A DNA stretch of 64,000 bases. Source: Oscillospiraceae bacterium. Its GTDB lineage: Bacteria; Bacillota; Clostridia; Oscillospirales; QAMX01. Position numbers and translations under genes: made by a program. This document shows positions 2,743-55,999 of this stretch, piece by piece. The notes under the pieces are model-generated. The model made no database searches. It worked only from the letters and a program-made list of their open reading frames with translations, and was not told the origin of the DNA. How positions within the stretch are numbered: position 1 is the stretch's first letter; every line of letters begins with the position of its first letter. The DNA is taken from positions 1,729-65,728 of the forward strand of contig SVLY01000007.1 in assembly GCA_015067715.1 (NCBI GenBank). The letters are read 5' to 3'.

Positions 2743-4965
2743 ATGGCAAAAAAGAAAACCCAAAAGCCCGAGATCGAGCTTCCCGCCCGTGAAGCCGAGC
2801 CCATGCTTATAACCCGGGTCATCGAGACCAACTATATGCCCTATACCATGAGCGTTATCGTGTCCCGCGCTCTCCCCGAGATAGACGGCTTCAAGCCCTC
2901 CCACAGAAAGCTTCTCTACACCATGTACAAGCAGGGGCTTCTCAAGGGACTCCGAATGAAGTCATCCGCCGTTGTGGGCGCCACCATGAAGCTGAACCCC
3001 CACGGCGACGGCGCGATCTACGAGACAATGGTGCGTCTCACCCGGGGCAACGGCGCGCTTTTGCACCCCTTTGTGGACTCAAAGGGCAACTTCGGCAAGG
3101 TCGGCTCCCGGGACATGGCCTACGCCGCATCCCGTTACACCGAGGTAAAGCTTGAGGCCATCTGCGCCGAGCTTTTCGACGGTATCGACGAAGAAATGGT
3201 GGACATGGTGGACAATTTCGACGGCACCATGAAGGAGCCCGTGCTCCTGCCCACCGGCTTTCCCAATATTCTGGTCTCTGCCAACATGGGCATCGCCGTC
3301 GGCATGGCCAGCCGTATCTGCGGCTTTAACCTCCGGGAGGTCTGCGAGACCACCATCGGACTGCTCCGCGACCCGGATCACAATATCTACGCCACTCTGA
3401 AAGCTCCGGATTTCCCCACCGGTGGCGAGCTGATCTACGACAGGGATGCTCTTGAGCAGATCTACGAGCAAGGTGTGGGCTCCTTCAAGGTGCGCTCCGT
3501 GTGGCATTACGACAAGGAGTCCAACTGCATCGAGGTCACCGAGATACCCTACACCGCCACGGTGGAGGCCATTATCGACAAGACCGCCGCCCTTGTGAAG
3601 GACGGAACGGTGAAAGAGATATCCGATATGCGAAACGAGACCGACCTTAACGGTCTTAAGATCGCCATCGACCTCAAGCGCGGCGTGGATCCGGAAAAGC
3701 TTATGGCCAAGCTCTCCCGGCTCACCCCCCTTACGGACAGCTTCCCCTGCAATTTCAACGTCATTATCGAGGGCACTCCCAAGGTCATGGGCGTCAGAGA
3801 GATACTCACCGAGTGGATCGCCTGGCGAATGATGTGCGTAGAGCGCCAGGGTCACTTCCGCCTGCGCAAGATGAAGGCAAGACTTCACCTTTTGGAGGGT
3901 CTTTCCAAAATACTTTTGGATATCGACAAGGCCATCGCCATTATCCGGGGCACCGAAGAGGATTCCGAGGTCATCCCCAACCTTATGATCGGCTTTGGCA
4001 TAGACGAGATCCAGGCAGAGTTTATCGCAGAGATCAAGCTCCGCAATATCAACAAGGAATACATTCTCAACCGCCTGTCCGAAACAGACCGCCTGAGAGA
4101 CGATATCGACGATCTTGAGGACACTCTCCGCAACAAGAAAAAGATCAAAAAGATCATTGCCGACCAGCTTGCGGACATCGCCAAAAAATACGGAAAGGAC
4201 CGTCAGACTAAGATCGTCTACGACGCCGTCGAGACCGAGGACGAGCCCGAAGCTCAGGTCGAGGACTACGCCGTTGTGTATTTTCTCACCGCAGAGGGCT
4301 ATTTCAAAAAGATCTCTCCCGCCGCCCTTCAGAGAAGCGGTGAGCACAAGCTCAAGGAGGGAGACAGCATCTTCTGCCGCGTAGACGGAAGCAATGCCGA
4401 CGATCTGCTGTTCTTTACCAACAAGTTCCAGGTCTACAAGGTCGCCTCCGACGATCTTTCCGAAAACAAGGTGGCAATGCTGGGTCTCTACCTGCCCCAG
4501 CACCTTGGCATGGAGTCCGGTGAAAACGTAGTGGCTATGGCCGTTGCCCCCAAGGGCGAGTACAGGGGAAGTCTGCTCTTCGTCTTCCAGGACGGAAAGT
4601 GCGCCAGAGTCAGCCTCTCCAGCTACGAGACCAAGACCAACCGCAAAAAGCTCACCGCCGCCTATTCGGACAAGTCGCCTCTTGCGGCGATGATCCAGCT
4701 TGACGGCGAGGAGGAGATACTCATCCGCACCAGCGCAGACAGAGGTCTGCTTCTGAATACCGCCGCCCTTGCGCCCAAGCCCACCAGAAGCACCGCCGGT
4801 GTCAAGGTGGTTACACTCAAGGCACGCCAGACGGTAACCGGCGCCGTGAGAGCAAGGGAGCTGAACCTCAAAAACCCCGCCCGTTTCCGCACACGCACCC
4901 TGCCCGCCGCAGGTGCACTGGTGCGAAGCGACGATCTGGGCGTTGAACAGACCACTCTGGAATAA
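2743..4965 (+). CDS. parC: type IIA DNA topoisomerase subunit A (topo IV ParC-like / GyrA family)
   Basis: KLNPHGDGAIYETMVRL and the catalytic-Tyr region AASRYTEVKL. At 740 aa it is shorter than typical GyrA. SD is GGGAGGAG. Confidence 0.8.
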   Translation: MAKKKTQKPEIELPAREAEPMLITRVIETNYMPYTMSVIVSRALPEIDGFKPSHRKLLYTMYKQGLLKGLRMKSSAVVGATMKLNPHGDGAIYETMVRLTRGNGALLHPFVDSKGNFGKVGSRDMAYAASRYTEVKLEAICAELFDGIDEEMVDMVDNFDGTMKEPVLLPTGFPNILVSANMGIAVGMASRICGFNLREVCETTIGLLRDPDHNIYATLKAPDFPTGGELIYDRDALEQIYEQGVGSFKVRSVWHYDKESNCIEVTEIPYTATVEAIIDKTAALVKDGTVKEISDMRNETDLNGLKIAIDLKRGVDPEKLMAKLSRLTPLTDSFPCNFNVIIEGTPKVMGVREILTEWIAWRMMCVERQGHFRLRKMKARLHLLEGLSKILLDIDKAIAIIRGTEEDSEVIPNLMIGFGIDEIQAEFIAEIKLRNINKEYILNRLSETDRLRDDIDDLEDTLRNKKKIKKIIADQLADIAKKYGKDRQTKIVYDAVETEDEPEAQVEDYAVVYFLTAEGYFKKISPAALQRSGEHKLKEGDSIFCRVDGSNADDLLFFTNKFQVYKVASDDLSENKVAMLGLYLPQHLGMESGENVVAMAVAPKGEYRGSLLFVFQDGKCARVSLSSYETKTNRKKLTAAYSDKSPLAAMIQLDGEEEILIRTSADRGLLLNTAALAPKPTRSTAGVKVVTLKARQTVTGAVRARELNLKNPARFRTRTLPAAGALVRSDDLGVEQTTLE

Positions 4966-6335: not shown

Positions 6336-7129
6336 AAAACATCTCTGAGATAAAAAACTGGCTTTTGGACATGGACGGAACGATCTATCTGGGAGAAGAG
6401 CTGATCCCCGGGGCGCTGGACTTTTTAAATGGCATCAAGCGCAGGGGAGGCAGAGCCATCTTCCTCACCAACAATTCCTCCCGGGCGCCGCGGGACTACG
6501 TTGAAAAGCTCCGCCGCCTTGGGATAGAGGCAGACCAGGAGGATATCTTCACCTCCGGCGATGCCGCGGCAAAGCTTTTGGAGGAGCGCTTCGGTCACGG
6601 CTCTTCCGGCTACGTTCTTGGCACACCCAGCCTTGAAAAGCTCATGGCGGACAGGGGCTTTGGGCTCTGCGCCGAGGGAGAAAAAGCAGATTTTGTGCTT
6701 TTGGGGTTTGACAAGACTCTTACTTATGATAAAATAAGAGTGGCTTGTGACTACATAAACGCCGGGGTGCCCTTTTTCGCTACCCACCCGGATTTTCTCT
6801 GTCCCACGGAGACGGGGTTCATCCCCGACACGGGCTCGATGATCAAAATGTTCGAGGCCGCAACGGGGGTTTCCCCCGAGGTTGCGGGCAAGCCCGAACG
6901 CGCCATGGCCAAGGCGGCATTTTTGCGCTACGGCATCGACCCGGCAGTCACCGCCATGGTGGGGGACAGGCTTATGACGGACATCGCCTTTGGAAACCGG
7001 GCGGACATAACCGCCGTGCTGGTGCTCTCCGGCGAGACGGGGCTTGAACAGTACAATGCCCAGAGCGAGGTTCACGCGGACTTTATTTTCAGCTCTGTGG
7101 GCGAAATGGAAAAGGAACTCTGCAAATAA
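6326..7129 (+). CDS. HAD-IIA family hydrolase (NagD/AraL-like sugar phosphatase)
   Basis: N-terminal LLDMDGTIY (DxDGT) motif and C-terminal MVGDRLMTDI. The start overlaps the upstream stop by 10 nt. Confidence 0.8.
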   Translation: MAVKNISEIKNWLLDMDGTIYLGEELIPGALDFLNGIKRRGGRAIFLTNNSSRAPRDYVEKLRRLGIEADQEDIFTSGDAAAKLLEERFGHGSSGYVLGTPSLEKLMADRGFGLCAEGEKADFVLLGFDKTLTYDKIRVACDYINAGVPFFATHPDFLCPTETGFIPDTGSMIKMFEAATGVSPEVAGKPERAMAKAAFLRYGIDPAVTAMVGDRLMTDIAFGNRADITAVLVLSGETGLEQYNAQSEVHADFIFSSVGEMEKELCK

Positions 7130-7157
7130 AAATATATCTTAACCGGAGGAACGGAGA

Positions 7158-8099
7158 ATGCTGCTTATCGGTGTTGACGGAGGCGGAACTCACAGCCGTC
7201 TTGCCGCCTGTGACGAAAAGGGAAATATAGTTGCCCACGCTGAGTGCGGAGGCATTAATTACAATGCGGTGGGAATGTACGCCGCAAGAGAGGCGCTTGC
7301 CGCCGGCGTGGACAGTATTCTGGACGCCGCCGGGGCAGACTGGTACGACTACCTTGCCGTGGGCATGAGCGCGCTGGACGGGGAAGCCACCGAGAGCGAG
7401 CTTTTGCAGTTCTGCGGCGACAGCTTTGAGTCCAGCCGCACCTATCTCCACTCCGACGCCCACATGACCCTTTTGGGCGCCACCGCCGGGGGAGCGGGTA
7501 TCGTTCTTATCAGCGGTACCGGCGCAATGGGCGCCGCCATCGACGAGGCCGGCAGAGAATACGCCGCCGGCGGCTGGGGATATCTGCTCAACGACGAGGG
7601 CAGTGGCTTTGACATCGGCTCCCGCGCCGTCCGCGCCGCCATACGGGCCTCCGAGGGCGGCGAGCAGACCCTGCTTCTGGATATGGTGACGGAGTGGTTC
7701 GGGGTTGAAAAGCTGAGAGACATTATCCCCGTGATCTATTCCGAAGGGTTCAAGCCCTCTCAGCTGGCGTCTGCGGCCCGTCTTGCGGATATGGCCGCAG
7801 AAAACGGGGACGGCGTTGCCCTTAAGATCCTGGACGAGGCCGCCGAGAGCATGGCGTTCGTGGCAAACTCTCTGCTCAGCCGCACCGGCGACCTGCCGAT
7901 CTACACCTACGGCGGAGTTTTCGAGCACTCTGCCACCTATAACCGCCGCTTTGCCGGGCATATCAGCAGGCTCCGCCCCGGAGTTTCCATTGCAAAGCCG
8001 AAGCTCCGTCCGGAATACGGCGCGCTTATCTCTGCCGCAAGTCTTATGGGTCTGGACACCCTTGAGTTTGAGGCAAATCTTGAAAAGACCGCAAAGTGA
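7158..8099 (+). CDS. BadF/BadG/BcrA/BcrD ATPase family protein (N-acetylglucosamine kinase-like)
   Basis: LIGVDGGGTHSRLA phosphate-1 motif, SGTGAMG, and GWGYLLNDEGSGF. Confidence 0.75.
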   Translation: MLLIGVDGGGTHSRLAACDEKGNIVAHAECGGINYNAVGMYAAREALAAGVDSILDAAGADWYDYLAVGMSALDGEATESELLQFCGDSFESSRTYLHSDAHMTLLGATAGGAGIVLISGTGAMGAAIDEAGREYAAGGWGYLLNDEGSGFDIGSRAVRAAIRASEGGEQTLLLDMVTEWFGVEKLRDIIPVIYSEGFKPSQLASAARLADMAAENGDGVALKILDEAAESMAFVANSLLSRTGDLPIYTYGGVFEHSATYNRRFAGHISRLRPGVSIAKPKLRPEYGALISAASLMGLDTLEFEANLEKTAK

Positions 8100-47971: not shown

Positions 47972-48814
47972 ATGGAGCGGAAAAACGTGACCTGGGAGGG
48001 ATGCGCCGTGGGCGAGAGTATTTGCAGATTCATTCCCGTAAAAAGGGCGGACGAGGGCATTAACACCCTGAATTTTGTTTACGAGGCAGACAGCTCTGCC
48101 ATAAAGCGCCCCTTTCTGCGGAGCGCGTATATGCTCCACATAGTTACCTCGGGCAGCGCCGTGCTTGAAATGGGAAACGAAAAATACCCTTTGAAAAAGG
48201 GGGATATCTTTCTCGCCTTTGCCGCCGTGCCCTACGAGATAACCCGGGACGAGGATCTGAGCTATATGTACATCACGTTTATCGGAATGCGGGTGAGGTC
48301 GCTTTTCGAGGAGCTTGGCATAAGCCGAAGCCGTCCGGTGTATTCGGGGCTTGGGCATCTGCTTCCCTTTTGGGAAAACGCCCTTGCCATGCTCGTGCCT
48401 GCCAACGCAAATATCCTTGCGGAGAGCGTTTTGCTCTTCACCCTTTCCCACATGTGCTCTTCGCCCCGGGAAAAAAACCAGCCGGAGGAGAGCTTTTCTC
48501 CCGCCGGGGACATAAAGGCCTTTGTGGACAGCCACTATACCGACCCGGAGCTGAGCCTGAAGGTCCTGTCACAAAAATTCTCCTACAGCGAAAAATACAT
48601 CTCTGCCATGTTCAAAAAACACGTGGGCACGGCCTTTTCCGACTACCTCAGGGATCTTCGCATACAGCGTGCCTGCCAGCTCATGGACGAGGGCGTGACG
48701 GTCATGTCCGAGGTTGCCGCCATGAGCGGCTTTAAGGATCCCCTGTATTTTTCAAAGGTGTTCAAGGCAAAAATGGACCGCTCCCCAAGCGGGCATATGA
48801 AGCTGAGAAGATAG
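47972..48814 (+). CDS. AraC family transcriptional regulator
   Basis: Cupin-like N-domain plus a C-terminal double HTH (ISAMFKKHVGTAFSDYLRDLRIQRACQLM). ATG 47972 lacks an SD. In-frame GTG 48008, preceded by GGGAGGGA, is an alternative start. Confidence 0.85.
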   Translation: MERKNVTWEGCAVGESICRFIPVKRADEGINTLNFVYEADSSAIKRPFLRSAYMLHIVTSGSAVLEMGNEKYPLKKGDIFLAFAAVPYEITRDEDLSYMYITFIGMRVRSLFEELGISRSRPVYSGLGHLLPFWENALAMLVPANANILAESVLLFTLSHMCSSPREKNQPEESFSPAGDIKAFVDSHYTDPELSLKVLSQKFSYSEKYISAMFKKHVGTAFSDYLRDLRIQRACQLMDEGVTVMSEVAAMSGFKDPLYFSKVFKAKMDRSPSGHMKLRR

Positions 48815-48829
48815 CCATTGCGTCGGCAG

Positions 48830-48926
48830 GCCCCCACCGCCCCTGCGGGGCACCTCCCCCGATGGGGGGAGGTTTTTTGCGTATGCCTGTAAAGATAGGA
48901 TAGTGCTAAAAATAAAAGCACGTACC
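48830..48926 (+). repeat. repeat module A, copy 1
   Basis: A double GC hairpin, then TTTTTGCGTATGCCTGTAAAGATAGGATAGTGCTAAAAATAAAAGCACGTACC. The same module occurs at 51441-51531 and 54675-54763. Confidence 0.9.
48839..48878 (+). terminator. rho-independent terminator of AraC-family gene (part of repeat module A)
   Basis: GCCCC-TGC-GGGGC, then CCTCCCCC-GAT-GGGGGGAGG, followed by T6. Confidence 0.8.
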
Positions 48927-49001
48927 CAAGGCTCCCTCTCCGAGGGAGCTGGATCGGCCAAAGGCCGAGACTGAGGGAGTGAATGCACCGGCGTATCATC
49001 C
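48927..49001 (+). repeat. 75-nt repeat module B, copy 1
   Basis: CAAGGCTCCCTCTCCGAGGGAGCTGGATCGGCCAAAGGCCGAGACTGAGGGAGTGAATGCACCGGCGTATCATCC. Confidence 0.95.
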
Positions 49002-49045
49002 CATGTGCCTCTCCCGGCGACATTATGCCAAAGGCGACCTTTTCC

Positions 49046-49118
49046 GGACGCCCCGGGAGGGGCGTCCCTACGGGCGCAAAGACAACCCCTGCGCCGTAGG
49101 GGCGAACTGCGTTCGCCC
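49046..49118. repeat. REP-like head-to-head palindrome doublet 1
   Basis: GGACGCCCC-GGGA-GGGGCGTCC + CTAC, 24-nt linker GGGCGCAAAGACAACCCCTGCGCC, then GTAG + GGGCGAAC-TGC-GTTCGCCC. Confidence 0.85.
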
Positions 49119-49259
49119 GTTTCGCGTATCATCCCCGGGTTCAAATCCCGGCAACACCGTGCCGATGGCGACGTTTTCGGGCGATTTTCAAATCGTCCCG
49201 CGCAACCTACTGCCAAACGATCGTCACAATCGAGCCCGCCTGCAGATTACTGCAAATAA

Positions 49260-49649
49260 TTACCCTCCATTGATATCCCAAATGGAAAGTACATCGCCTT
49301 CCGAGGTAATGATAGTCCCTATGGTCTCACCTAAGCCCGGAATATATCCAAGCACAATCCACATATCAGACTCAGGGTCATATCCAACTCGATGCGGAAA
49401 ATACCGCAAGGTTTTCTCCAAACCAAATTCATCTATCCACAACCATAGCGTCTGCCAACGGACCTGGCGCGCATTATGTACTTCTCCAACCCGAATATCG
49501 CCATACAAAGGTTCATGAGTCGGAAGGAACTCTCTATTAACCGGAATCTCGTAGTAATTCGGATTTATCAACATCGTTGCCCATATCACCATTACAGCTA
49601 CCAGAAAATATACCACCGTTAACAGAACCGTTTTGCACACATTTTTCAT
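49260..49649 (-). CDS. hypothetical small membrane-anchored protein
   Basis: 129 aa from MKNVCKTVLLTVVYFLVAVMVIWATML (AGGTGAGG SD). AT-richer than the flanking chromosome. Bracketed by repeat blocks. Confidence 0.6.
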   Translation of the reverse strand: MKNVCKTVLLTVVYFLVAVMVIWATMLINPNYYEIPVNREFLPTHEPLYGDIRVGEVHNARQVRWQTLWLWIDEFGLEKTLRYFPHRVGYDPESDMWIVLGYIPGLGETIGTIITSEGDVLSIWDINGG

Positions 49650-49723
49650 GTTCCAATACCTCACCTAAGCGGATGATTCGGCTCATATACAATATCCTCG
49701 CATATAATTTCCCCATACGGATC

Positions 49724-49798
49724 CAAGGCTCCCTCTCCGAGGGAGCTGGATCGGCCAAAGGCCGAGACTGAGGGAGTGAATGCACCGACGTATCATCC
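49724..49798 (+). repeat. 75-nt repeat module B, copy 2
   Basis: Identical to copy 1 except for one G>A change. Confidence 0.95.
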
Positions 49799-49840
49799 CG
49801 CTTGCCTCTCCCGGCAACACCGTTCCGATGGCAAGTTTGC

Positions 49841-49912
49841 GGGCGTTCACAGAACATCCCTACCGGGCGCAAAGGTTAACCTGTTACACCTTAGGGGCGA
49901 ACTGCGTTCGCC
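49841..49912. repeat. REP-like doublet 2 (degenerate)
   Basis: GGGCGTTCACAGAACATCC + CTAC, 27-nt linker, then TTAG + GGGCGAACTGCGTTCGCC. Colinear with doublet 1. Confidence 0.7.
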
Positions 49913-49973
49913 TGTTTCGCGTATCATCCCCGTGTTCAATCCCCGGCAACACCGTGCCGATGGCGACGTTTTC

Positions 49974-49997
49974 GGGCGTTTTTCAAATCGCCCCTAC
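49974..49997 (-). repeat. single REP-like palindrome with GTAG head
   Basis: Plus strand reads GGGCGTTTTTCAAATCGCCC + CTAC. It ends 4 nt before the stop of the 50001-50324 gene. Confidence 0.7.
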
Positions 49998-50000
49998 TGC

Positions 50001-50324
50001 TCACAGTAAGTCAGCCAAAACAGAAATAATTCCAAAAGAAAAACAAAACAGGCTCCCAACCAAATAATGAATTCCGCCCCATCGTTTTGCCCGGCTATCA
50101 GACTTATCTTTGGAGAATGAACGGTATCTGAAAACGTACTTAAGGATCCTGTTCAGGAATTTCGGACGAACACTAAAACCAAAAAACCACTCATAAAAGA
50201 GCGACCCAAATACCATCGCAATAAGCCACACTCCAGCAGATCTATGTTCAAGCACCAGTGCAACAACAAAACATACAATATTTATTACGAGGTAAGCCTG
50301 AGTCAATCGTTTCTTCCATATCAT
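50001..50324 (-). CDS. hypothetical small integral membrane protein (about 3 TM helices)
   Basis: 107 aa from MIWKKRLTQAYLVINIVCFVVALVL. AT-rich. The longer ORF in the track reads into repeats. Confidence 0.55.
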   Translation of the reverse strand: MIWKKRLTQAYLVINIVCFVVALVLEHRSAGVWLIAMVFGSLFYEWFFGFSVRPKFLNRILKYVFRYRSFSKDKSDSRAKRWGGIHYLVGSLFCFSFGIISVLADLL

Positions 50325-50444
50325 CCGTCCCACCGTTCTTTCACGTAACCAAACAAGTCTATAACTATCTCGCAATCCGAAACTGCGACCGCCCAACGCC
50401 CCCACATACCATTCCGCTGCATCGCGCCAACCGGCAACGTTTGC

Positions 50445-50516
50445 GGGAGGCTGATAGCGTCCCCTACGGGCACGAAGACCAACCTCGTACCGTAGGGCGG
50501 GGGCTTGCTCCCGCCG
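50445..50516. repeat. REP-like head-to-head doublet 3
   Basis: GGGAGGCT-GAT-AGCGTCCC + CTAC, 24-nt linker GGGCACGAAGACCAACCTCGTACC, then GTAG + GGCGGG...CCCGCC. Confidence 0.85.
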
Positions 50517-50520
50517 AAAT

Positions 50521-50558
50521 CCTGTGAAGGCACACGGTTTACACACTGTGTGAGGACA
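50521..50558 (+). repeat. 38-nt repeat module F, copy 1
   Basis: CCTGTGAAGGCACACGGTTTACACACTGTGTGAGGACA. Copies also at 51283 and 51726. Confidence 0.9.
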
Positions 50559-50582
50559 AGTCTTCCCCTCGCAGGGGAAGAC

Positions 50583-50634
50583 TTATATATGGGTCGATTT
50601 TCAAATCGCCCTACCGCAATTATTCATTATTCAT
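50583..50634 (-). repeat. repeat module G (REP-like palindrome + AT tail), copy 1
   Basis: TTATATATGGGTCGATTTTCAAATCGCC + CTAC + CGCAATTATTCATTATTCAT. It contains the stop codon of the DUF5104-like ORF. Confidence 0.85.
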
Positions 50635-51210
50635 TCGCCCCCCCCCCCGTGTCATCCCGTTCGCCTTTCCCGGCGACACTATATTAATTCCCGGAATCCA
50701 TTTTCCGTCACCGCGATATACATAATTCTCTGTCCAATTATTTGATTCAATAATATAGATAGACATAATCCCAATATTATTATCATCAAATTCGTCCTTT
50801 ATACACTCTTTGATAGCGATATAATATGTGTTTTCGGTTGTGTTGATGCAAAATGCAGACTGTATTTCCTTTCTCTTTTTCCCGCTTTCAATTCTATAGT
50901 CAGTCCCTACTCCCGCTTCCGATGCAGAAGAAAACGCAACTATATCACCATGAATAAACTCAAAAAACTTCAATGCCGATTGTGATAGATTGTCTACGCT
51001 ATTGTCTTCGCTTTTGATGGAATTAGAGAACATATCTACTATTTTCGAATCATCCTGTAAACTAATAGCAGTAATAATTTCGTTGAAAGTCTTATCTGCA
51101 ATTTTTTCATCATTATCTTCAAAAACACCCATACCAGTTCCTCCGTTAGAACAAGATGTAAAAGCCAATGTTAATATAAGCAGCATTATCAATAGAATCA
51201 CTTTCCTCAT
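50620..51210 (-). CDS. DUF5104-like lipoprotein
   Basis: Lipobox LTLAFTSC. About 35% GC by eye. Pattern FNEIITAI...DMFS...FFEFIHGDIV...YYIAIKEC. The last ~23 codons are encoded by repeat modules. Confidence 0.65.
   Translation of the reverse strand: MRKVILLIMLLILTLAFTSCSNGGTGMGVFEDNDEKIADKTFNEIITAISLQDDSKIVDMFSNSIKSEDNSVDNLSQSALKFFEFIHGDIVAFSSASEAGVGTDYRIESGKKRKEIQSAFCINTTENTYYIAIKECIKDEFDDNNIGIMSIYIIESNNWTENYVYRGDGKWIPGINIVSPGKANGMTRGGGRMNNE
50638..50648 (-). repeat. homopolymer C11 (G11 on coding strand) inside 3' end of ORF
   Basis: Eleven consecutive C residues at 50638-50648. Confidence 0.9.
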
Positions 51211-51282
51211 ATTTATCTCCTATGCTTAAAACTGAAGAATGGCTAATTCCAAATAATCATAAAATGACCAACGAGCCGAAAC

Positions 51283-51320
51283 CCTGTGAAGGCACACGGT
51301 TTACAATCTGTGTGAGGACA
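51283..51320 (+). repeat. 38-nt repeat module F, copy 2
   Basis: CCTGTGAAGGCACACGGTTTACAATCTGTGTGAGGACA. Confidence 0.9.
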
Positions 51321-51440
51321 CGGCCTCCCCTCGCAGGGCACAGTGAAGCCCTTCGGTCTTCACCGCAGGCGAGACTGATGAGGTGGAGCTTGCCAATGCG
51401 CCGCTGTTCGACATTGTGCCAAAGGCAGCCTTCACCTCAT

Positions 51441-51531
51441 CCGCCCCTTCGGGGCACCTTCCCCTGAAAGGGGAAGGCTTTTTGCGTGTGCCTGTAAAGA
51501 TAGGATAGTGCTAAAAATAAAAGCACGTACC
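51441..51531 (+). repeat. repeat module A, copy 2
   Basis: GCCCC-TTC-GGGGC + CCTTCCCCT-GAAA-GGGGAAGG + T5, then the conserved AT-rich stem-loop segment. Confidence 0.9.
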
Positions 51532-51606
51532 CAAGGCTCCCTCTCCGAGGGAGCTGGATCGGCCAAAGGCCGAGACTGAGGGAGTGAATGCACCGGCGTA
51601 TCATCC
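51532..51606 (+). repeat. 75-nt repeat module B, copy 3
   Basis: Identical to copy 1. Confidence 0.95.
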
Positions 51607-51649
51607 TGGTTGCCCCTCCCGGCAACACCGTACCGACGGCGACGTTTGC

Positions 51650-51720
51650 GGGAGGCTGATAGCCTCCCCTACGGGAGCGAAGACCAACCTCGTACCGTAG
51701 GGCGGGGGCTTGCTCCCGCC
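51650..51720. repeat. REP-like head-to-head doublet 4
   Basis: GGGAGGCT-GAT-AGCCTCCC + CTAC, 24-nt linker GGGAGCGAAGACCAACCTCGTACC, then GTAG + GGCGGG...CCCGCC. Confidence 0.9.
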
Positions 51721-51725
51721 GAAAC

Positions 51726-51763
51726 CCTGTGAAGGCACAAGGTTTACAAACTGTGTGAGGACA
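51726..51763 (+). repeat. 38-nt repeat module F, copy 3
   Basis: CCTGTGAAGGCACAAGGTTTACAAACTGTGTGAGGACA. Confidence 0.9.
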
Positions 51764-51836
51764 AGGCTCCCTCTCCGAGGGAGCTGGATCGGCCAAAGGC
51801 CGAGACTGAGGGAGTGAATGCACCGGCGTATCATCC
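51762..51836 (+). repeat. 75-nt repeat module B, copy 4
   Basis: Identical to copy 1. Confidence 0.95.
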
Positions 51837-51879
51837 CGGTTGCCCCTTCCGGAAACACCGTGCCGACGGCAATGTTTTC

Positions 51880-51905
51880 GGACGCCCCGGGAGGGGCGTC
51901 CCTAC
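51880..51905 (-). repeat. single REP-like palindrome with GTAG head
   Basis: GGACGCCCC-GGGA-GGGGCGTCC + CTAC. Confidence 0.85.
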
Positions 51906-51928
51906 GTTTTATTTATTCATTCGTCCCC

Positions 51929-51978
51929 CGTGCCCCCACCGCCCCTGCGGGGCACCTCCCCCGATGGGGGGGAGGTTT
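51929..51978 (+). repeat. repeat module A, partial copy 4 (hairpins only)
   Basis: GTGCCCCCACCGCCCCTGCGGGGCACCTCCCCCGATGGGGGGGAGG. Confidence 0.85.
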
Positions 51979-52029
51979 ATATATGGGTCGATTCGTGAAT
52001 CGACCCTACCGCAATTATTCATTATTCAT
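51977..52029 (-). repeat. repeat module G, copy 2
   Basis: TTATATATGGGTCGATTCGTGAATCGACC + CTAC + CGCAATTATTCATTATTCAT. Confidence 0.85.
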
Positions 52030-52093
52030 CAGCGAAGCGGCTTCATTATTCAATATTCATTTGTTCCAACGCATCATCCCGGTATTTAAATAT

Positions 52094-52117
52094 GGGCGAT
52101 TTAAAATCGCCCATACC
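52094..52117 (-). repeat. REP-like palindrome with variant head (GTAT)
   Basis: GGGCGATTT-AA-AATCGCCC + ATAC. Confidence 0.6.
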
Positions 52118-52330
52118 TCAACTCTTCACTCTTCTCTGTGCTCTGTTCACTGTTCTCTATATCCAACCTACGGGCGCATTTTACGCTTTCGCCGCGGCAA
52201 AAAGCCCCCCTTGCCGGGTGAGGGGTAGGGGGGATTCCGTAAGTCTTCCCCGGCAATACCGTGCCGAAGGCGACGTTTGCTTCGCTTGCCCTGCGTGAGA
52301 GGGCTCCCGAAAACGTCTGAGAAGATAAAG

Positions 52331-52373
52331 CAAAAACAGCCGCGCCCCTTTGAAAAAAACGGGGCGCGGCTTT
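52331..52373 (-). terminator. rho-independent terminator after the lipoprotein gene pair
   Basis: AGCCGCGCCCC-loop-GGGGCGCGGCT. The minus strand continues GTTTTTG. Confidence 0.8.
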
Positions 52374-52383
52374 GTAGTTGGTT

Positions 52384-53346
52384 CTATTCTGTCAATACGG
52401 TAACGGAATAGGGAATGTTGATCATAGCCGGGTCTATCGTCATAAAGAATCCGTCGTGTTCTAACCGCAGTACTGTGCCAACGGAGATATCCTGGGGAAG
52501 CCATTCCGGCTGCAGCTGTACCCGTTGGTTCGGAGAGTCTTTCTCAAGGTTTTCTGCAATTACCAGATCGCTTCTTATTTCAACCACCTTTACCGTCAGT
52601 GTCACAGAGGGACAGGTCAGCACAACGGAGCCTCCAACGGCGTAGACAGCGGCAAACTTTCCGTTGGCGCTCCAAAGATATTCTTCCGTCTCCCCGTCGG
52701 CCCAGACCTGAGAGCTTTCCGGCTCTCCCCATTTTTCAAGGAATTCTTCAAGGGGAATGCCCTTATAGGCGTTGCTTATATCGTCCTGCAAACCAAGGGC
52801 AAAAAACTCCTCGAGGGTCGGCGGATGGTTTCGGGATTCAATGCTTGCGGAATAGACCCTTTGAAAAGCCTCTCCGGGGTTGGAGGACTGCTCTTTTGAG
52901 ACCTCAAGCTTTAATACCGAGCCCACGGTGAGAGGGCCGTTTGAAGGGTCTACTTGGCTGACCGGAAGGTACGTCGACCTGCCTGCATAGCTTTCCGGAG
53001 AGGTGAGATGAAGAGATACTCTGTCCTCGCCCATGCCGTGCACTTTGGCCAAAACGGTGACGGATACCGAAATCAAGGTTACGTTTCCGTTTTTGTATTT
53101 AACTCTCAGGTATTTATCATTAACTCTCCATACGTCAAGCTCTTCACTCTCTGACTCGTAGGGGGGACCCCAGGCATCGAGGAGCTCGGACTTGCTCCTG
53201 CCCACACAGCTATCCAGAACAGCCTTATCACCCGTGAGCAGTTCGTCTATTTGGGGTAATCCGGCTGAAGATTCATCGGGCAGGGCGCCCCCGCAGGCGG
53301 AAAAAGCAAGGCAGAGAAAAAGTACTGTTGCAATGAGTTTTTTCAT
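52384..53346 (-). CDS. lipoprotein with two internal repeat domains, function unknown
   Basis: MKKLIATVLFLCLAFSAC lipobox. Internal duplication (ELLDAWGPPY...VTLISVSVTVLAKV and EFLEKWGEPE...VVLTCPSVTLTVKV). ATG 53346 has a GGAGG SD. Confidence 0.7.
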   Translation of the reverse strand: MKKLIATVLFLCLAFSACGGALPDESSAGLPQIDELLTGDKAVLDSCVGRSKSELLDAWGPPYESESEELDVWRVNDKYLRVKYKNGNVTLISVSVTVLAKVHGMGEDRVSLHLTSPESYAGRSTYLPVSQVDPSNGPLTVGSVLKLEVSKEQSSNPGEAFQRVYSASIESRNHPPTLEEFFALGLQDDISNAYKGIPLEEFLEKWGEPESSQVWADGETEEYLWSANGKFAAVYAVGGSVVLTCPSVTLTVKVVEIRSDLVIAENLEKDSPNQRVQLQPEWLPQDISVGTVLRLEHDGFFMTIDPAMINIPYSVTVLTE

Positions 53347-53366
53347 TGGGATAACCTCCTGTTCTC
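53291..53366 (-). repeat. shared 5' module (SD + signal peptide), copy 1
   Basis: About 76 nt with about 5 mismatches relative to 54235-54310. Confidence 0.9.
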
Positions 53367-54290
53367 CTATGGGTGCAGCTTCGGCTCCGTGCCGTAGATG
53401 GCGACGAAGGCATCGTAATCTTCGCTGTCGGCTGAGATCCAATCAACAAAATAACAGAGGGCGTATTCGCCGTTTCTTCTCACGATAAGCCATAGCTCAT
53501 CTTCCATACCTCTCACGCGGTAAATTCCGTCACAGCCCGTCGACCCTGCAATACGCTTGCCAAGGTAGGGCTCCGGCCAAGGCGAATCAACGGTGAACAC
53601 AACGTCATACAGAGCCGCATATCCGTTTTCGTCCACTGCATAAACAGGTCTTAAAAACTGACCGTTTGAAGTGAGGATATCTGCAATATCCGTCCGCAAG
53701 ACAAAAAACTTCGGACTTTTGGGCCGCATCACGGTCTTTGAATGCTCAACGGAATATCTGAACACCTCAGCCCTCAGCGCCCGGGCATTGGCTTTCTCCG
53801 GCTTTAACCCTTCGGAAACCAGCTGATCTGCGAGAGCTTCATTTTCGGATAAGCCCCAGACCTCAGCCAGATATCCGCAGGAAAACTCCATACAAAGATC
53901 CGCAACGGCATAGTTATAGAAATACCCGGGGCCAAAGTCTTCGTCCGGGAGCACGTAAGAGGTAAAATACTCCTGCCTTGCATATTTCTCCGGAGCTATC
54001 CCCAAAGCCCTGGCCTTTTCACAGCACTCATAATACAGCTCCTTCTGCCTCGCGGCAAGAGCATCCTTTCCGGGAGTAAACCCAAGGGTCTTGCTCAGAA
54101 CGTACAGCCTGTTCTCGAAATCCGCCCACAGCTCTTCCTCCGTGTTTTCAGCGGAGGAGATATAGTACTTTGAAAGCATGGTCCGTTTGACAAGTCTGCT
54201 TTCTGACGTAAAACATGCAGCCTCCGCTGTATCACCGCAGGCAGACAAAGCAAGGCAGAGAAAAAGTACTGTTGCAATGAGTTTTTTCAC
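53367..54290 (-). CDS. lipoprotein, function unknown
   Basis: GTG start and MKKLIATVLFLCLALSAC lipobox. The mature part is unrelated to the downstream paralog. Confidence 0.7.
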   Translation of the reverse strand: MKKLIATVLFLCLALSACGDTAEAACFTSESRLVKRTMLSKYYISSAENTEEELWADFENRLYVLSKTLGFTPGKDALAARQKELYYECCEKARALGIAPEKYARQEYFTSYVLPDEDFGPGYFYNYAVADLCMEFSCGYLAEVWGLSENEALADQLVSEGLKPEKANARALRAEVFRYSVEHSKTVMRPKSPKFFVLRTDIADILTSNGQFLRPVYAVDENGYAALYDVVFTVDSPWPEPYLGKRIAGSTGCDGIYRVRGMEDELWLIVRRNGEYALCYFVDWISADSEDYDAFVAIYGTEPKLHP

Positions 54291-54310
54291 GGGGATAACC
54301 TCCTGTTCCT
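54235..54310 (-). repeat. shared 5' module (SD + signal peptide), copy 2
   Basis: See 53291-53366. Confidence 0.9.
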
Positions 54311-54490
54311 GTCAGTATGGAACACAGCCAAGCACATCGTAACTCCGTTTTGCCTTTGTTGCCACCCCATGTGTGTGTTTGGATCCAATAGGCATATATT
54401 GCAAACGGATCAAAAGTGACAGTTCAGCTATGCACGCAATAATGCAGATACACGCAGAATACCGCTCCACTTCTTTTGCAATAGCCTAAA

Positions 54491-54520
54491 ATATTATCGA
54501 ATCAGCCCATAATTTGTCAA
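54491..54520 (-). promoter_or_regulatory. candidate sigma-A promoter for lipoprotein pair
   Basis: Minus strand reads TTGACA (54515-54520), 18 nt, TAATAT. This implies a ~190-nt AT-rich leader. Confidence 0.35.
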
Positions 54521-54612
54521 AACGTCTCGCCACAATTTGTTTACGTAATCAGTATAACATTCACGTCCTGTTGCTGTCAAGGATAAAAAGTAATTGTGAC
54601 CATGTTTTCTCT

Positions 54613-54650
54613 GTATTGCACAAAATTAACTTGTCGTTTTTGTGCAATAC
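54613..54650. repeat. perfect 13-bp-arm hairpin
   Basis: GTATTGCACAAAA-loop(12)-TTTTGTGCAATAC. Confidence 0.85.
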
Positions 54651-54674
54651 AACCAAGGGTCGGGGATTCTCCCC

Positions 54675-54763
54675 GTGCCCCCACCGCCCCTGCGGGGCAC
54701 CTTCCCCTGCTTTTTGCGTATGCCTGTAAAGATAGGATAGTGCTAAAAATAAAAGCATGTACC
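54675..54763 (+). repeat. repeat module A, copy 3 (second hairpin truncated)
   Basis: CCCCCACCGCCCCTGCGGGGCACCTTCCCCTGCTTTTTGCGTATGCCTGTAAAGATAGGATAGTGCTAAAAATAAAAGCATGTACC. Confidence 0.9.
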
Positions 54764-54838
54764 CAAGGCTCCCTCTCCGAGGGAGCTGGATCGGCCAAAG
54801 GCCGAGACTGAGGGAGTGAATGCACCGGCGTATCATCC
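54764..54838 (+). repeat. 75-nt repeat module B, copy 5
   Basis: Identical to copy 1. Confidence 0.95.
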
Positions 54839-54880
54839 TGCTTGCCTCTCCCGGCAACACCGTGCCAAAGGCGAGTTTGC

Positions 54881-54950
54881 GGGAGGCTGATAGCCTCCCC
54901 TACAGGCGCAAAGACAACCCCTGCGCTGTAGGGGCAGATATCATCTGCCC
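54881..54950. repeat. REP-like head-to-head doublet 5
   Basis: GGGAGGCT-GAT-AGCCTCCC + CTAC, 24-nt linker AGGCGCAAAGACAACCCCTGCGCT, then GTAG + GGGCAGAT-ATC-ATCTGCCC. Confidence 0.9.
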
Positions 54951-55018
54951 GCCGGGGGAACCCGCGCATCATCCCGTTTGCCTCTCCCGGCAATACCGTG
55001 CCGACGGCAACGTTTTCC

Positions 55019-55092
55019 GGACGCCCCGGGAGGGGCGTCCCTACGGGCAAACAGATAAACCGCACACCGTAGGGCGGGGGCTTGCTCCCGCC
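55019..55092. repeat. REP-like head-to-head doublet 6
   Basis: GGACGCCCC-GGGA-GGGGCGTCC + CTAC, 24-nt linker GGGCAAACAGATAAACCGCACACC, then GTAG + GGCGGG...CCCGCC. Confidence 0.9.
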
Positions 55093-55125
55093 GTTCCACG
55101 GCGTTATCTCCCGTATACCTTTTTT

Positions 55126-55151
55126 GGACGCCCCGGGAGGGGCGTCCCTAC
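55126..55151 (-). repeat. single REP-like palindrome with GTAG head
   Basis: GGACGCCCC-GGGA-GGGGCGTCC + CTAC. Confidence 0.85.
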
Positions 55152-55164
55152 GTTTTTGTTCACT

Positions 55165-55194
55165 AAATCAAAAGCCCCCTTTACCAAAGGGGGC
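55165..55194 (-). terminator. rho-independent terminator of IMPase gene
   Basis: GCCCCCTTT-ACC-AAAGGGGGC. The minus strand continues TTTTGATTT. Confidence 0.75.
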
Positions 55195-55204
55195 AAAGGG
55201 GGCA

Positions 55205-55999
55205 TCACTCTTCGATAAGCTCTTTCAGCTCTGCGTATGCAACTGGGTTTCCGGCCATGACGCTGTCCGGGGCGGAGAGGTCAAGGGGATCGCCGGAGAA
55301 ATTGGTTATCTTTCCGCCGGCTTCGGTTATCAGCAGAGCTCCTGCGGCGTAGTCCCAGGGGGAGAGGCGGAGCTCGTAAAAGGCGCAGAGCCTGCCTGCG
55401 GCGACGTAGGCAAGGTGGAGCGCCGCCGTGCCCAGGTTTCTTACGTCGATGCACTTGGCATAGACCCTTGAAAGCAGGGCCATGTGCCTGTCTGCAACGG
55501 TGCGGTCGTAGGGGGTGGAGCCATAGCCTGCCAGGCCGTGTTCAAGGTCACGGGCGGAGACCTGCATGGGCTCGCCGTTAAGGTAAGCTCCGCCGCCCAG
55601 CGTTGCGGAAAAGAGCTCGTCGGTATAGGGGCAGTAGACGGCCGCGGCAAGGGTGCGGTTGGCCTTCACGTCGCAAAGGGCAATGCTGACCGCGGAAAGG
55701 CGGAGGCCCATCATGAAGTTTGAGGTGCCGTCTATGGGGTCGACGACGAAGGCAAGGTCGGAGATAAGCTTTCCCTTTTCGGTATCCTCCTCGCCGAAAA
55801 AGCCTATCTCCGGGGAAAAGACCGAAAGCTCCCGGGCGATGTATTTCTGAACCGCAACGTCGCACTCGGTAACGTAGTTTGCCGTACCGGGTTTTTGGGT
55901 TATGCCGACGTCGGCGGGGTTTGTGCCGTACATGATGCGCCCGGCGCTTTTGGCAGTGAGGCACATGACCCGGCAGATCTCGTTTATATCTCTCGTCAT
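55205..55999 (-). CDS. inositol monophosphatase family protein
   Basis: FFGEE, VVDPIDGTSNF, and WDYAAGALLITEAGG motifs. Confidence 0.9.
   Translation of the reverse strand: MTRDINEICRVMCLTAKSAGRIMYGTNPADVGITQKPGTANYVTECDVAVQKYIARELSVFSPEIGFFGEEDTEKGKLISDLAFVVDPIDGTSNFMMGLRLSAVSIALCDVKANRTLAAAVYCPYTDELFSATLGGGAYLNGEPMQVSARDLEHGLAGYGSTPYDRTVADRHMALLSRVYAKCIDVRNLGTAALHLAYVAAGRLCAFYELRLSPWDYAAGALLITEAGGKITNFSGDPLDLSAPDSVMAGNPVAYAELKELIEE

Follow-up and report, generated by a model that had tools for sequence, protein, structure and literature searches.

GTAG-tagged palindromes of an Oscillospiraceae genomic island are probably REP elements in BIME-like mosaics, with links to RayT-like genes in other Clostridia

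Introduction

To our knowledge, work on repetitive extragenic palindromic (REP) elements and their REP-associated tyrosine transposases (RAYTs) has been confined almost entirely to Proteobacteria and, on the computational side, to Cyanobacteria and Bacteroidetes. Here we analyse a 64,000-nt stretch of an Oscillospiraceae bacterium of the class Clostridia (GenBank assembly GCA_015067715.1, contig SVLY01000007.1, positions 1,729 to 65,728 of the forward strand), which we call the window and in whose coordinates positions are given. At 48.8-55.2 kb the window holds a 6.4-kb island in which a repeat mosaic lies among five small minus-strand genes, and many of its repeats are G+C-rich palindromes headed by the tetranucleotide GTAG. 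These palindromes are probably REP elements of the GTAG superfamily, arranged in mosaics like those of bacterial interspersed mosaic elements (BIMEs) and served by a RayT-type enzyme.

Three described systems come close to what we found. In Escherichia coli, cleavage at inverted REPs (iREPs) and at linkers, as well as strand exchange, has been shown in vitro for the transposase TnpA-REP (PMC3333891), and the linker known as L has a site for the integration host factor. The REPINs of Pseudomonas form a system tied to a single-copy RAYT (PMC3116915). RAYT subclass 2.4 of Quentin et al. (2018, PMC6006769), which is Group 4 of Bertels et al. (2017, PMC5581495), is found abundantly among Cyanobacteria and Bacteroidetes and scattered elsewhere, and it is unique in having in-frame REPs inside the transposase gene (PMC6006769).

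For Clostridia, we found no description of REPs in the REP and RAYT literature that could be searched. The class is not mentioned in Di Nocera 2013, Nunvar 2010 or Ton-Hoang 2012, and Bertels 2017 (PMC5581495) and Quentin 2018 (PMC6006769) mention it only for other Y1 groups. An earlier note on this DNA had known of no equivalent system characterised in Clostridia. This agrees with the absence of any paper from the searchable literature, but the enzyme family itself turns out to be very common in the class, where it carries the RayT label in IMG.

Tagged hairpins of the island

When perfect stems were scanned for, 43 hairpins were found in the island, of which 11 have GTAG directly 5' or CTAC directly 3', compared with 2 such hairpins in the other 57.6 kb. 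A relaxed scan, in which one mismatch was tolerated in stems of at least 8, gave 15 strict GTAG-tagged units in the island and 3 in the remaining 57.6 kb. First-order Markov resamples of the window gave a mean of 2.9 tagged units per 64 kb, with a maximum of 8, so that the adjacency of GTAG and hairpin, which the earlier note had left to a proper scan, lies well above chance. Four decayed units (49841-49863; 49891-49912, tagged TTAG; 49179-49199; and 52091-52117, tagged CATAC) bring the total to about 19 GTAG-plus-hairpin units. This is the number that had been estimated from the first reading, and the copy numbers quoted with it were also correct: four of GGACGCCCC...CTAC, three of GGGAGGCT...CTAC together with one variant, and three of GTAG-GGCGGG.

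All tagged units follow a common plan in which GTAG precedes an 8-10 bp G+C-rich stem that opens with GGG, encloses a loop of 2-4 nt and closes with CCC. The interiors of the stems differ, and at least seven stem families can be told apart (E1, E2, E3a-c, F1, F2 and F3; Table 1). The units thus have the feature by which REPs are recognised, namely a G+C-rich imperfect palindrome of 20-40 nt with GTAG at its 5' foot. The GTAG hairpins are only part of a larger mosaic that also holds non-GTAG modules (A-D, G and H; Table 1).

RayT-like genes linked to the palindromes

The palindromes of the island, or close variants of them, are physically linked to RayT-like genes of other Clostridia. Loci were picked solely for an E2-type palindrome (GGGAGGCT-NNN-AGCCTCCCCTAC), and about 0.8 Mb was fetched for the 120 loci listed. 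Six of these loci contain a RayT-like gene, where roughly 0.3 would be expected in a sample of this size according to our own estimate, which assumes about one such gene per 3 Mb. The gene and the E2 unit are no more than a few hundred bases apart in four of them (L014, L089, L095 and L103); in the two others (L067 and L078), both of which carry "double-foot" palindromes, the gene lies in another part of the locus.

In locus L014 the gene (3353-3808) has alternating GTAG units on either side, as in a textbook REPtron: REPs at 3218(+) and 3303(-) come first, and after the gene there are REPs at 3830(+), 3940(-), 3996(+) and 4106(-). A second REPtron was found in L103, where the gene (6961-7422) lies between inverted E2-like units at 6814 and 7665. 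The earlier note had proposed to look for Y1 transposase genes flanked by these units, and the two metagenome loci provide them.

In L095 the units lie within the gene itself, which contains the E2 and F3 units of the window, exact and in frame; translated, they give VGEAISLP ahead of the HUH motif and GQMISAPT behind it. In L135, the RayT-like gene (1923-2402) has an internal inverted pair of F1 type that is identical to the F1 unit of the window at 22 of 23 nt, one loop base being changed. This gene is AT-rich except for its G+C-rich palindromes at 2034-2056 and 2205-2227, on a contig of 41% G+C, suggesting that selection keeps the hairpins and not merely the encoded peptide. The association was also observed in a cultured member of the Oscillospiraceae, Fumia xinanensis, whose RayT-like gene lies between the ruvABC and ecf transporter genes and has one REP just upstream as well as an internal inverted pair, with a further REP between ruvC and ruvA. 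Altogether, a REPtron or RAYT association with these palindromes or close variants is present in the Clostridial and metagenomic loci L014, L095, L103, L134 and L135. When E1-derived peptides were grafted into a RayT query, the search returned no E1-bearing RayT and turned up the F1-bearing protein P0221.

Doublets and their linkers

Six times in the island two palindromes face each other head to head, as had been described, and the linkers between them measure 24, 27, 24, 24, 24 and 24 nt. Folded as single-stranded DNA, five of the six doublets form three adjacent hairpins, with z-scores of -3 to -6.7, and the decayed doublet at 49841-49912 folds weakly. The three-hairpin fold that had been proposed for every doublet therefore stands for five of them, but the linker hairpin in their middle is not demonstrably conserved. 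The doublet at 55019-55092 was also found in six other contigs (L001, L004, L005, L006, L008 and L009).

We collected every CTAC...GTAG junction from the window and its sibling loci, which gave about 14 linker variants with the consensus GGGC...AAG...AACC......CC, mostly of 24 nt and a few of 25 or 27 nt. Several are chimeric, with a 5' half from one type and a 3' half from another. The ends of the linker pair in only 5 of the 12 distinct 24-nt variants. Its central stem is mostly CTAC-G paired with C-GTAG, and the outer linker "stem", the invariant CTAC-G/C-GTAG, is complementary by construction. The four inner pairs form in only 40-58% of the 12 distinct variants, and 63 of 500 shuffles attained their covariation score. 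The co-varying linker ends of the earlier note are thus literally present in the window, but in a structural alignment of the 12 variants their covariation does not exceed that of shuffles. A conserved third hairpin in the linker is therefore not supported, and we attribute the fixed length to shared descent of the junction. The 24-nt linker is a family of homologous, recombining sequences. Among the features of BIMEs, alternating REPs, recurring linkers and strain-variable copy number are all seen here (six doublets, about 14 linker variants, alleles that differ), and no conserved linker structure was found across the 12 variants.

Distribution and strain variation

The clusters are not an artefact of assembly, since independent assemblies hold them. 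An independent JGI contig (L001) matches the window at this end with 99% identity, the cluster at 54673-55160 included, and two ENA contigs (L008 and L009) carry 54709-55093 at 92% identity. The modules recur, reshuffled, in other intergenic regions of the same strain or of sibling strains, at least 10 in number and usually with 95-100% identity. The genes beside these copies include pilin/VWA genes, ferritin/rubredoxin genes, an ABC transporter, a glycyl-radical enzyme and a Barstar-containing array of small open reading frames (ORFs), and the sites lie mostly between convergent or co-directional genes.

The reach of the individual units differs. The E2-type palindrome was found in at least 120 metagenome loci with several distinct flanking families; among the matches listed, the sources are human gut, animal gut and, judging by record names, other environments, and the species of the window was not found among these loci. 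The E1 unit is present in only 2 of 185,579 species genomes, neither of which is the source species, and in one of the two, an Oscillospiraceae metagenome-assembled genome (MAG), it forms a REPIN-like inverted pair. A spurious ORF that runs over modules C, G, F2, linker, E2, D, C, B and A matched only 25 proteins among 5.8 billion, and the companion modules appear, on these matches, to be confined to a narrow lineage. By exact sequence, the window traces to an NCBI MAG, and its protein clusters contain close relatives that bear the labels "Clostridia bacterium" or "Oscillospiraceae bacterium". The 25 "proteins" are themselves repeat-spanning spurious ORFs that public metagenome annotations list as genes. 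In the window, the repeats at 48643-55218 make long spurious ORFs, up to 179 aa, in many frames. On a contig labelled Acidaminococcus (Negativicutes; L003, 3418-3570), three different GTAG-tagged palindromes occupy one intergenic region, and unless this MAG bin is contaminated the REP system may extend beyond Clostridia.

Strains differ at the repeats. At the ferritin/rubredoxin locus, two strains that are about 97% identical in the flanking modules differ by a clean exchange of linker type 6 plus E1 for linker type 3 plus E2, and this cassette swap is bounded by CTACGGT and AAACGTT. Several indels also separate the strains at this locus, one of which (30 nt) starts directly after CTACGG. The swap, the indel and the chimeric linkers fit the iREP and linker cleavage and strand exchange of E. 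coli TnpA-REP, by analogy with which they could be explained. The 99%-identical strain of L001 is without 52272-54672 (compared with L001 1820-2100), a segment that includes two lipoprotein genes, and on the far side of the repeats its sequence runs into rpmB-dapB-dapA instead of towards the AraC gene. Given the missing genes and the different neighbours, the repeat clusters mark a synteny breakpoint and a presence/absence polymorphism. A second island of this kind was observed in a sibling genome (L008, 8000-14500), where the clusters alternate with small ORFs without Pfam matches and with a Barstar (PF01337) gene, which suggests that the mosaics are interspersed through arrays of accessory or immunity-like genes.

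A passive origin has to be weighed here, in which one composite intergenic segment (A-B-C-D-E-linker-F) gave rise to the island by gene conversion and serial rounds of segmental duplication, with no dedicated enzyme and with GTAG as an inherited passenger. Such a history would account for the single orientation and recurring order of all island modules, for copies that are 92-100% identical and for allelic differences bounded by shared sequence. We nevertheless consider it unlikely, since the units also occur singly, in other combinations and at unrelated loci, since seven different stems have retained both the GTAG-GGG foot and their pairing, and since RayT-like genes of other lineages contain or adjoin identical or near-identical units.

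The units might also be primarily RNA elements (terminators, mRNA-stabilising 3' hairpins or small RNAs), with their REP likeness secondary. The island has 20 terminator-like sites, compared with 7.8 +/- 3.0 in shuffles, its clusters share the preference for sites between convergent or co-directional genes, and elsewhere REPs are known to have such roles (PMC3733652). Yet most of the terminator-like hairpins point along the plus strand and the island genes lie on the minus strand, and Rfam covariance models gave no match at gathering score, with one chance snoRNA match at E <= 1. Neither the conservation of the GTAG tag nor the link to RayT genes would be explained, and an RNA role as the primary one is very unlikely, even though it is not exclusive of the REP explanation.

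The associated enzymes

The RayT-like proteins are about 160 aa long and have no C-terminal extension. The NCBIfam model NF047646 (REP-associated tyrosine transposase) matches them with E-values of 5e-20 to 2e-18, and their best solved relative is E. coli TnpA-REP (PDB 4ER8, E = 1.7e-6), with which the HUH motif, the GTAG-recognition segment WQ..F.DH.IR and the tyrosine motif YI..NP can be aligned. Both matches agree with the enzyme class that the earlier note had named for such units. The feature set of RAYTs, that is HUH, a catalytic tyrosine within YxxNP and WQ...(D/E)(H/R)..R, is present in the proteins of L095, L103, L078 and Fumia. At E <= 1e-10 the family numbers more than 6,000 proteins, whose sources include Fumia xinanensis, MAGs of Oscillospiraceae, Clostridia and Ruminococcaceae, and Tepidanaerobacter, and whose record names include "transposase" and, by an automatic IMG label, "REP element-mobilizing transposase RayT".

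Both of the REP-like peptides, VG.....P before the HUH motif and G.....PT after it, are found in 125 of 157 homologues. A perfect palindrome of GTAG, an 8-bp stem and a 3-nt loop could encode 116 of each peptide, compared with 0.6% of random peptides of this form. Moreover, both sites can share one stem in 69 proteins, where shuffled pairing would give 13.7 (maximum 24 in 1,000 shuffles). An internal inverted pair of REP-like sequences at two fixed in-frame positions is thus a trait of the family, carried by most members. The absence of a C-terminal extension, the REPs within the gene, the stems that start with three G-C pairs and the double-foot palindromes are all features of subclass 2.4 / Group 4, and the system most likely belongs to a subclass-2.4-like RayT clade common in Clostridia, an assignment made by shared features and not with the authors' profiles.

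The nature of these proteins bears on a third explanation, according to which the units are miniature derivatives (palindrome-associated or miniature inverted-repeat transposable elements, PATEs or MITEs) of an autonomous insertion sequence (IS) of the IS200/IS605 type and owe their movement to a classical TnpA-IS200 rather than a domesticated RAYT. Recognition in IS200/IS605 follows a similar logic, with subterminal hairpins and an adjacent tetranucleotide (PMC6006769), and weak Pfam Y1_Tnp matches would suit this origin too. However, the proteins score 67-72 bits with the RAYT model and at most 17 bits with the transpos_IS200 model, the Fumia copy sits among housekeeping genes, and the units bear the REP-type GTAG tag. 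Neither tnpB nor a left-end/right-end organisation was noticed in L014, L095, L103 and L134, in which no systematic search was made. PATEs are characterised by ends that derive from an autonomous IS with tnpA(IS200), with or without tnpB, and the model scores speak against such a derivation here. We regard this origin as remote. A CRISPR array (no regular spacers), integron attC cassettes (no integrase, no GTTRRRY cores) and a retron or other known RNA (Rfam empty) were rejected.

Interpretation

The REP/BIME reading, first put forward in the earlier note, is borne out by the exact E2 and F3 units and the 22 of 23 nt of F1 inside RayT-like genes, by the REPtrons and by the reshuffled dispersal of the modules, and we hold it with some confidence. 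A number of points weigh on the other side. No RAYT gene was found in the window, in agreement with the first reading, nor in about 100 kb of loci from the same species. The units lie in one island and the modules have a single orientation within the 64 kb, unlike the even scatter of E. coli REPs, and modules A, B, C, D, G and H, which lack GTAG, have no counterpart in described REP systems. The NF047646 scores of 67-72 bits are under the curated cut-off of 80, and the Pfam Y1_Tnp matches are weak, two of three proteins being just under the cut-off and the third passing it (25 vs 23 bits). The cassette swap and the chimeric linkers would be equally explained by ordinary gene conversion between homologous modules. 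Finally, we infer the action of the enzyme on the units.

If the palindromes are REPs, each unit would fold into a hairpin on single-stranded DNA, where a HUH/Y1 RayT (TnpA-REP) enzyme of about 160 aa would bind the hairpin together with its 5' GTAG. The gene for this enzyme would be encoded elsewhere in the genome, in which we infer its presence. By analogy with E. coli TnpA-REP, the enzyme would cut between C and T in the CTAC of inverted units and in the linkers, and rejoining of the strands would duplicate, delete and swap REP-plus-linker cassettes and so build the mosaic. Homologous recombination between near-identical modules would then add or remove the small accessory genes between clusters, which would leave the island variable among strains.

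We put forward a wider proposal only tentatively and would not be surprised to see it fail. It combines two ideas: that a very large Clostridial RAYT clade, with thousands of members, keeps an in-frame inverted pair of its cognate REP at two fixed positions in its gene as a "master copy" or record of specificity, and that in this Oscillospiraceae lineage several REP families joined by head-to-head junctions of a fixed 24 nt give rise to BIME-like mosaics that act as recombination joints of strain-variable accessory-gene islands. If both were true, REP-RAYT systems would organise genome plasticity in gut Firmicutes in a general way that has so far gone undescribed, and would also be a cause of fragmented MAG assemblies.

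Companion modules and accessory genes

The modules and genes of the island are listed in Table 1. Within the window every module copy lies inside the island and in one common orientation, and the order A-B-C-D-E-linker-F recurs three times. The products of the five accessory genes look like secreted, lipoprotein or membrane proteins, judging by their N-termini.

Table 1. Repeat units, modules and accessory genes of the island, in window coordinates.
Feature	Position	Strand	Description
REP unit E1	49046-49071	-	GTAGGGACGCCCC-TCCC-GGGGCGTCC, read on the minus strand
Head-to-head linker type 1, 24 nt	49072-49095	.	GGGCGCAAAGACAACCCCTGCGCC
REP unit F1	49096-49118	+	GTAG-GGGCGAAC-TGC-GTTCGCCC
Decayed doublet	49841-49912	.	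degenerate hairpin + CTAC, 27-nt linker, TTAG-tagged F1
REP unit E3c	49974-49997	-	GTAGGGGCGATTTGAAAAACGCCC
Doublet	50445-50515	.	E2 variant + 24-nt linker type 3 + F2
REP unit E3a	50591-50614	-	GGGTCGATTTTCAAATCGCCCTAC on the plus strand
Doublet	51650-51720	.	E2 + 24-nt linker + F2
REP unit E1, single	51880-51905	-	
REP unit E3b	51985-52009	-	10-bp stem
Doublet	54881-54950	.	E2 + 24-nt linker type 2 + F3
Doublet	55019-55092	.	E1 + 24-nt linker type 6 (ends unpaired) + F2
REP unit E1, single	55126-55151	-	adjoins 3' end of inositol monophosphatase gene
Module A			terminator-like hairpins
Module B			AT-rich
Module C			72-nt double hairpin; 100% identical in 4 of 5 copies
Module D			two small hairpins
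Modules E1, E2, E3			hairpin + CTAC
Modules F1, F2, F3			GTAG + hairpin
Modules G, H			further short modules
Modules A-B-C-D	48834-49045	+	order recurs at 51441-51647 and 54681-54879
Modules C-D, further copies	49727-49832; 51765-51866		
Module G	50521-50560	+	more copies at 51282-51320 and 51725-51765
Accessory genes (five)	49260-49664; 50001-50324; 50620-51210 (DUF5104); 52384-53349; 53367-54290	-	separated by repeat clusters

The hairpins with T-runs of module A (48852-48878, 51457-51482 and 51954-51976) point along the plus strand, all island genes being on the minus strand, and among them only that at 48852-48878 can serve a plus-strand gene (AraC). A motif resembling module D, AAACGTC[AG]C.ATC...GCC, adjoins E2 units in four sloth-gut contigs (L017, L051, L079 and L117), where it is inverted relative to the CTAC tag when compared with module D of the window (e.g. 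51610-51647). The motif contains CGTC, by which the second REP superfamily of Di Nocera et al. is tagged.

The DUF5104 gene runs at its 3' end (50620-50700) into modules H and D, and because of this overlap its last 20 or so codons form a repeat-derived C-terminal tail. The two neighbouring lipoprotein genes have in common a 74-nt stretch with 95% identity (53291-53364 and 54235-54308) that spans the ribosome-binding site and the signal peptide (MKKLIATVLFLCLA), and the proteins differ elsewhere. This stretch has the look of a 5' module that was swapped or duplicated. A perfect inverted repeat of 14 nt (TGTATTGCACAAAA / TTTTGTGCAATACA, at 54612-54651) lies upstream of the lipoprotein gene, where it adjoins strong promoter-like minus-strand sites (hexamers at 54580-54551 and 54520-54493), and could be an operator.

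Comparison with known systems

The full REP/BIME architecture is now seen in gut and rumen Oscillospiraceae, tied to an abundant clade of small RayT proteins. An enzyme gene that carries its own substrate offers an easy entry to biochemistry. The repeats mark strain-variable islands and could serve for strain typing; they probably also break metagenome assemblies, and they generate spurious "hypothetical proteins".

Pneumococcal BOX elements are modular, mosaic intergenic repeats that are made from a few reshuffled boxes. We know of no GTAG-tagged hairpin logic in them and of no Y1 enzyme that serves them. The likeness to BOX elements that the earlier note had pointed out is one of architecture only, and no relationship in sequence was seen.

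With the REP/BIME and TnpA-REP (RayT/YafM; PMC3333891, 4ER8) system of E. coli, the island has several features in common: the 5' GTAG at the foot of a G+C-rich hairpin, the presence of several REP types per genome, the mosaic and strain-variable clusters, the joining of a REP and an inverted REP, head to head or tail to tail, by families of linkers, and the HUH, WQ...R and YxxNP motifs of the associated proteins. In contrast to E. coli, the stems of the island have a shorter length of 8-10 bp, pair almost perfectly and open with GGG, a single 6-kb island contains at least seven stem families, the head-to-head linker is nearly fixed at 24 nt, and there are extra modules without GTAG. The associated enzyme is also shorter (about 160 aa), lacks a C-terminal extension and has REPs within its own gene.

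As in the REPINs of Pseudomonas (Bertels & Rainey 2011, PMC3116915), two inverted REPs make up the repeated unit. In a REPIN, however, one REP is present in two copies, which as arms make up a single long hairpin, whereas the partners of the doublets described here have different stems and are complementary only at their CCCTAC...GTAGGG feet.

RAYT subclass 2.4 (PMC6006769, PMC5581495) likewise has short proteins without a C-terminal extension, REP stems opening with three G-C pairs, "double-foot" palindromes (here in L067 and L078) and REPs that lie in frame within the tnpA-REP gene, between HUH and Y. Those papers do not describe the Clostridial clade, its REP families or the BIME-like mosaics, and about 80% of members here have the two internal REPs at fixed positions, one on each side of HUH. 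Since the underlying principle is already known, the island and its associated genes represent an extension of a known system and not a new mechanism.

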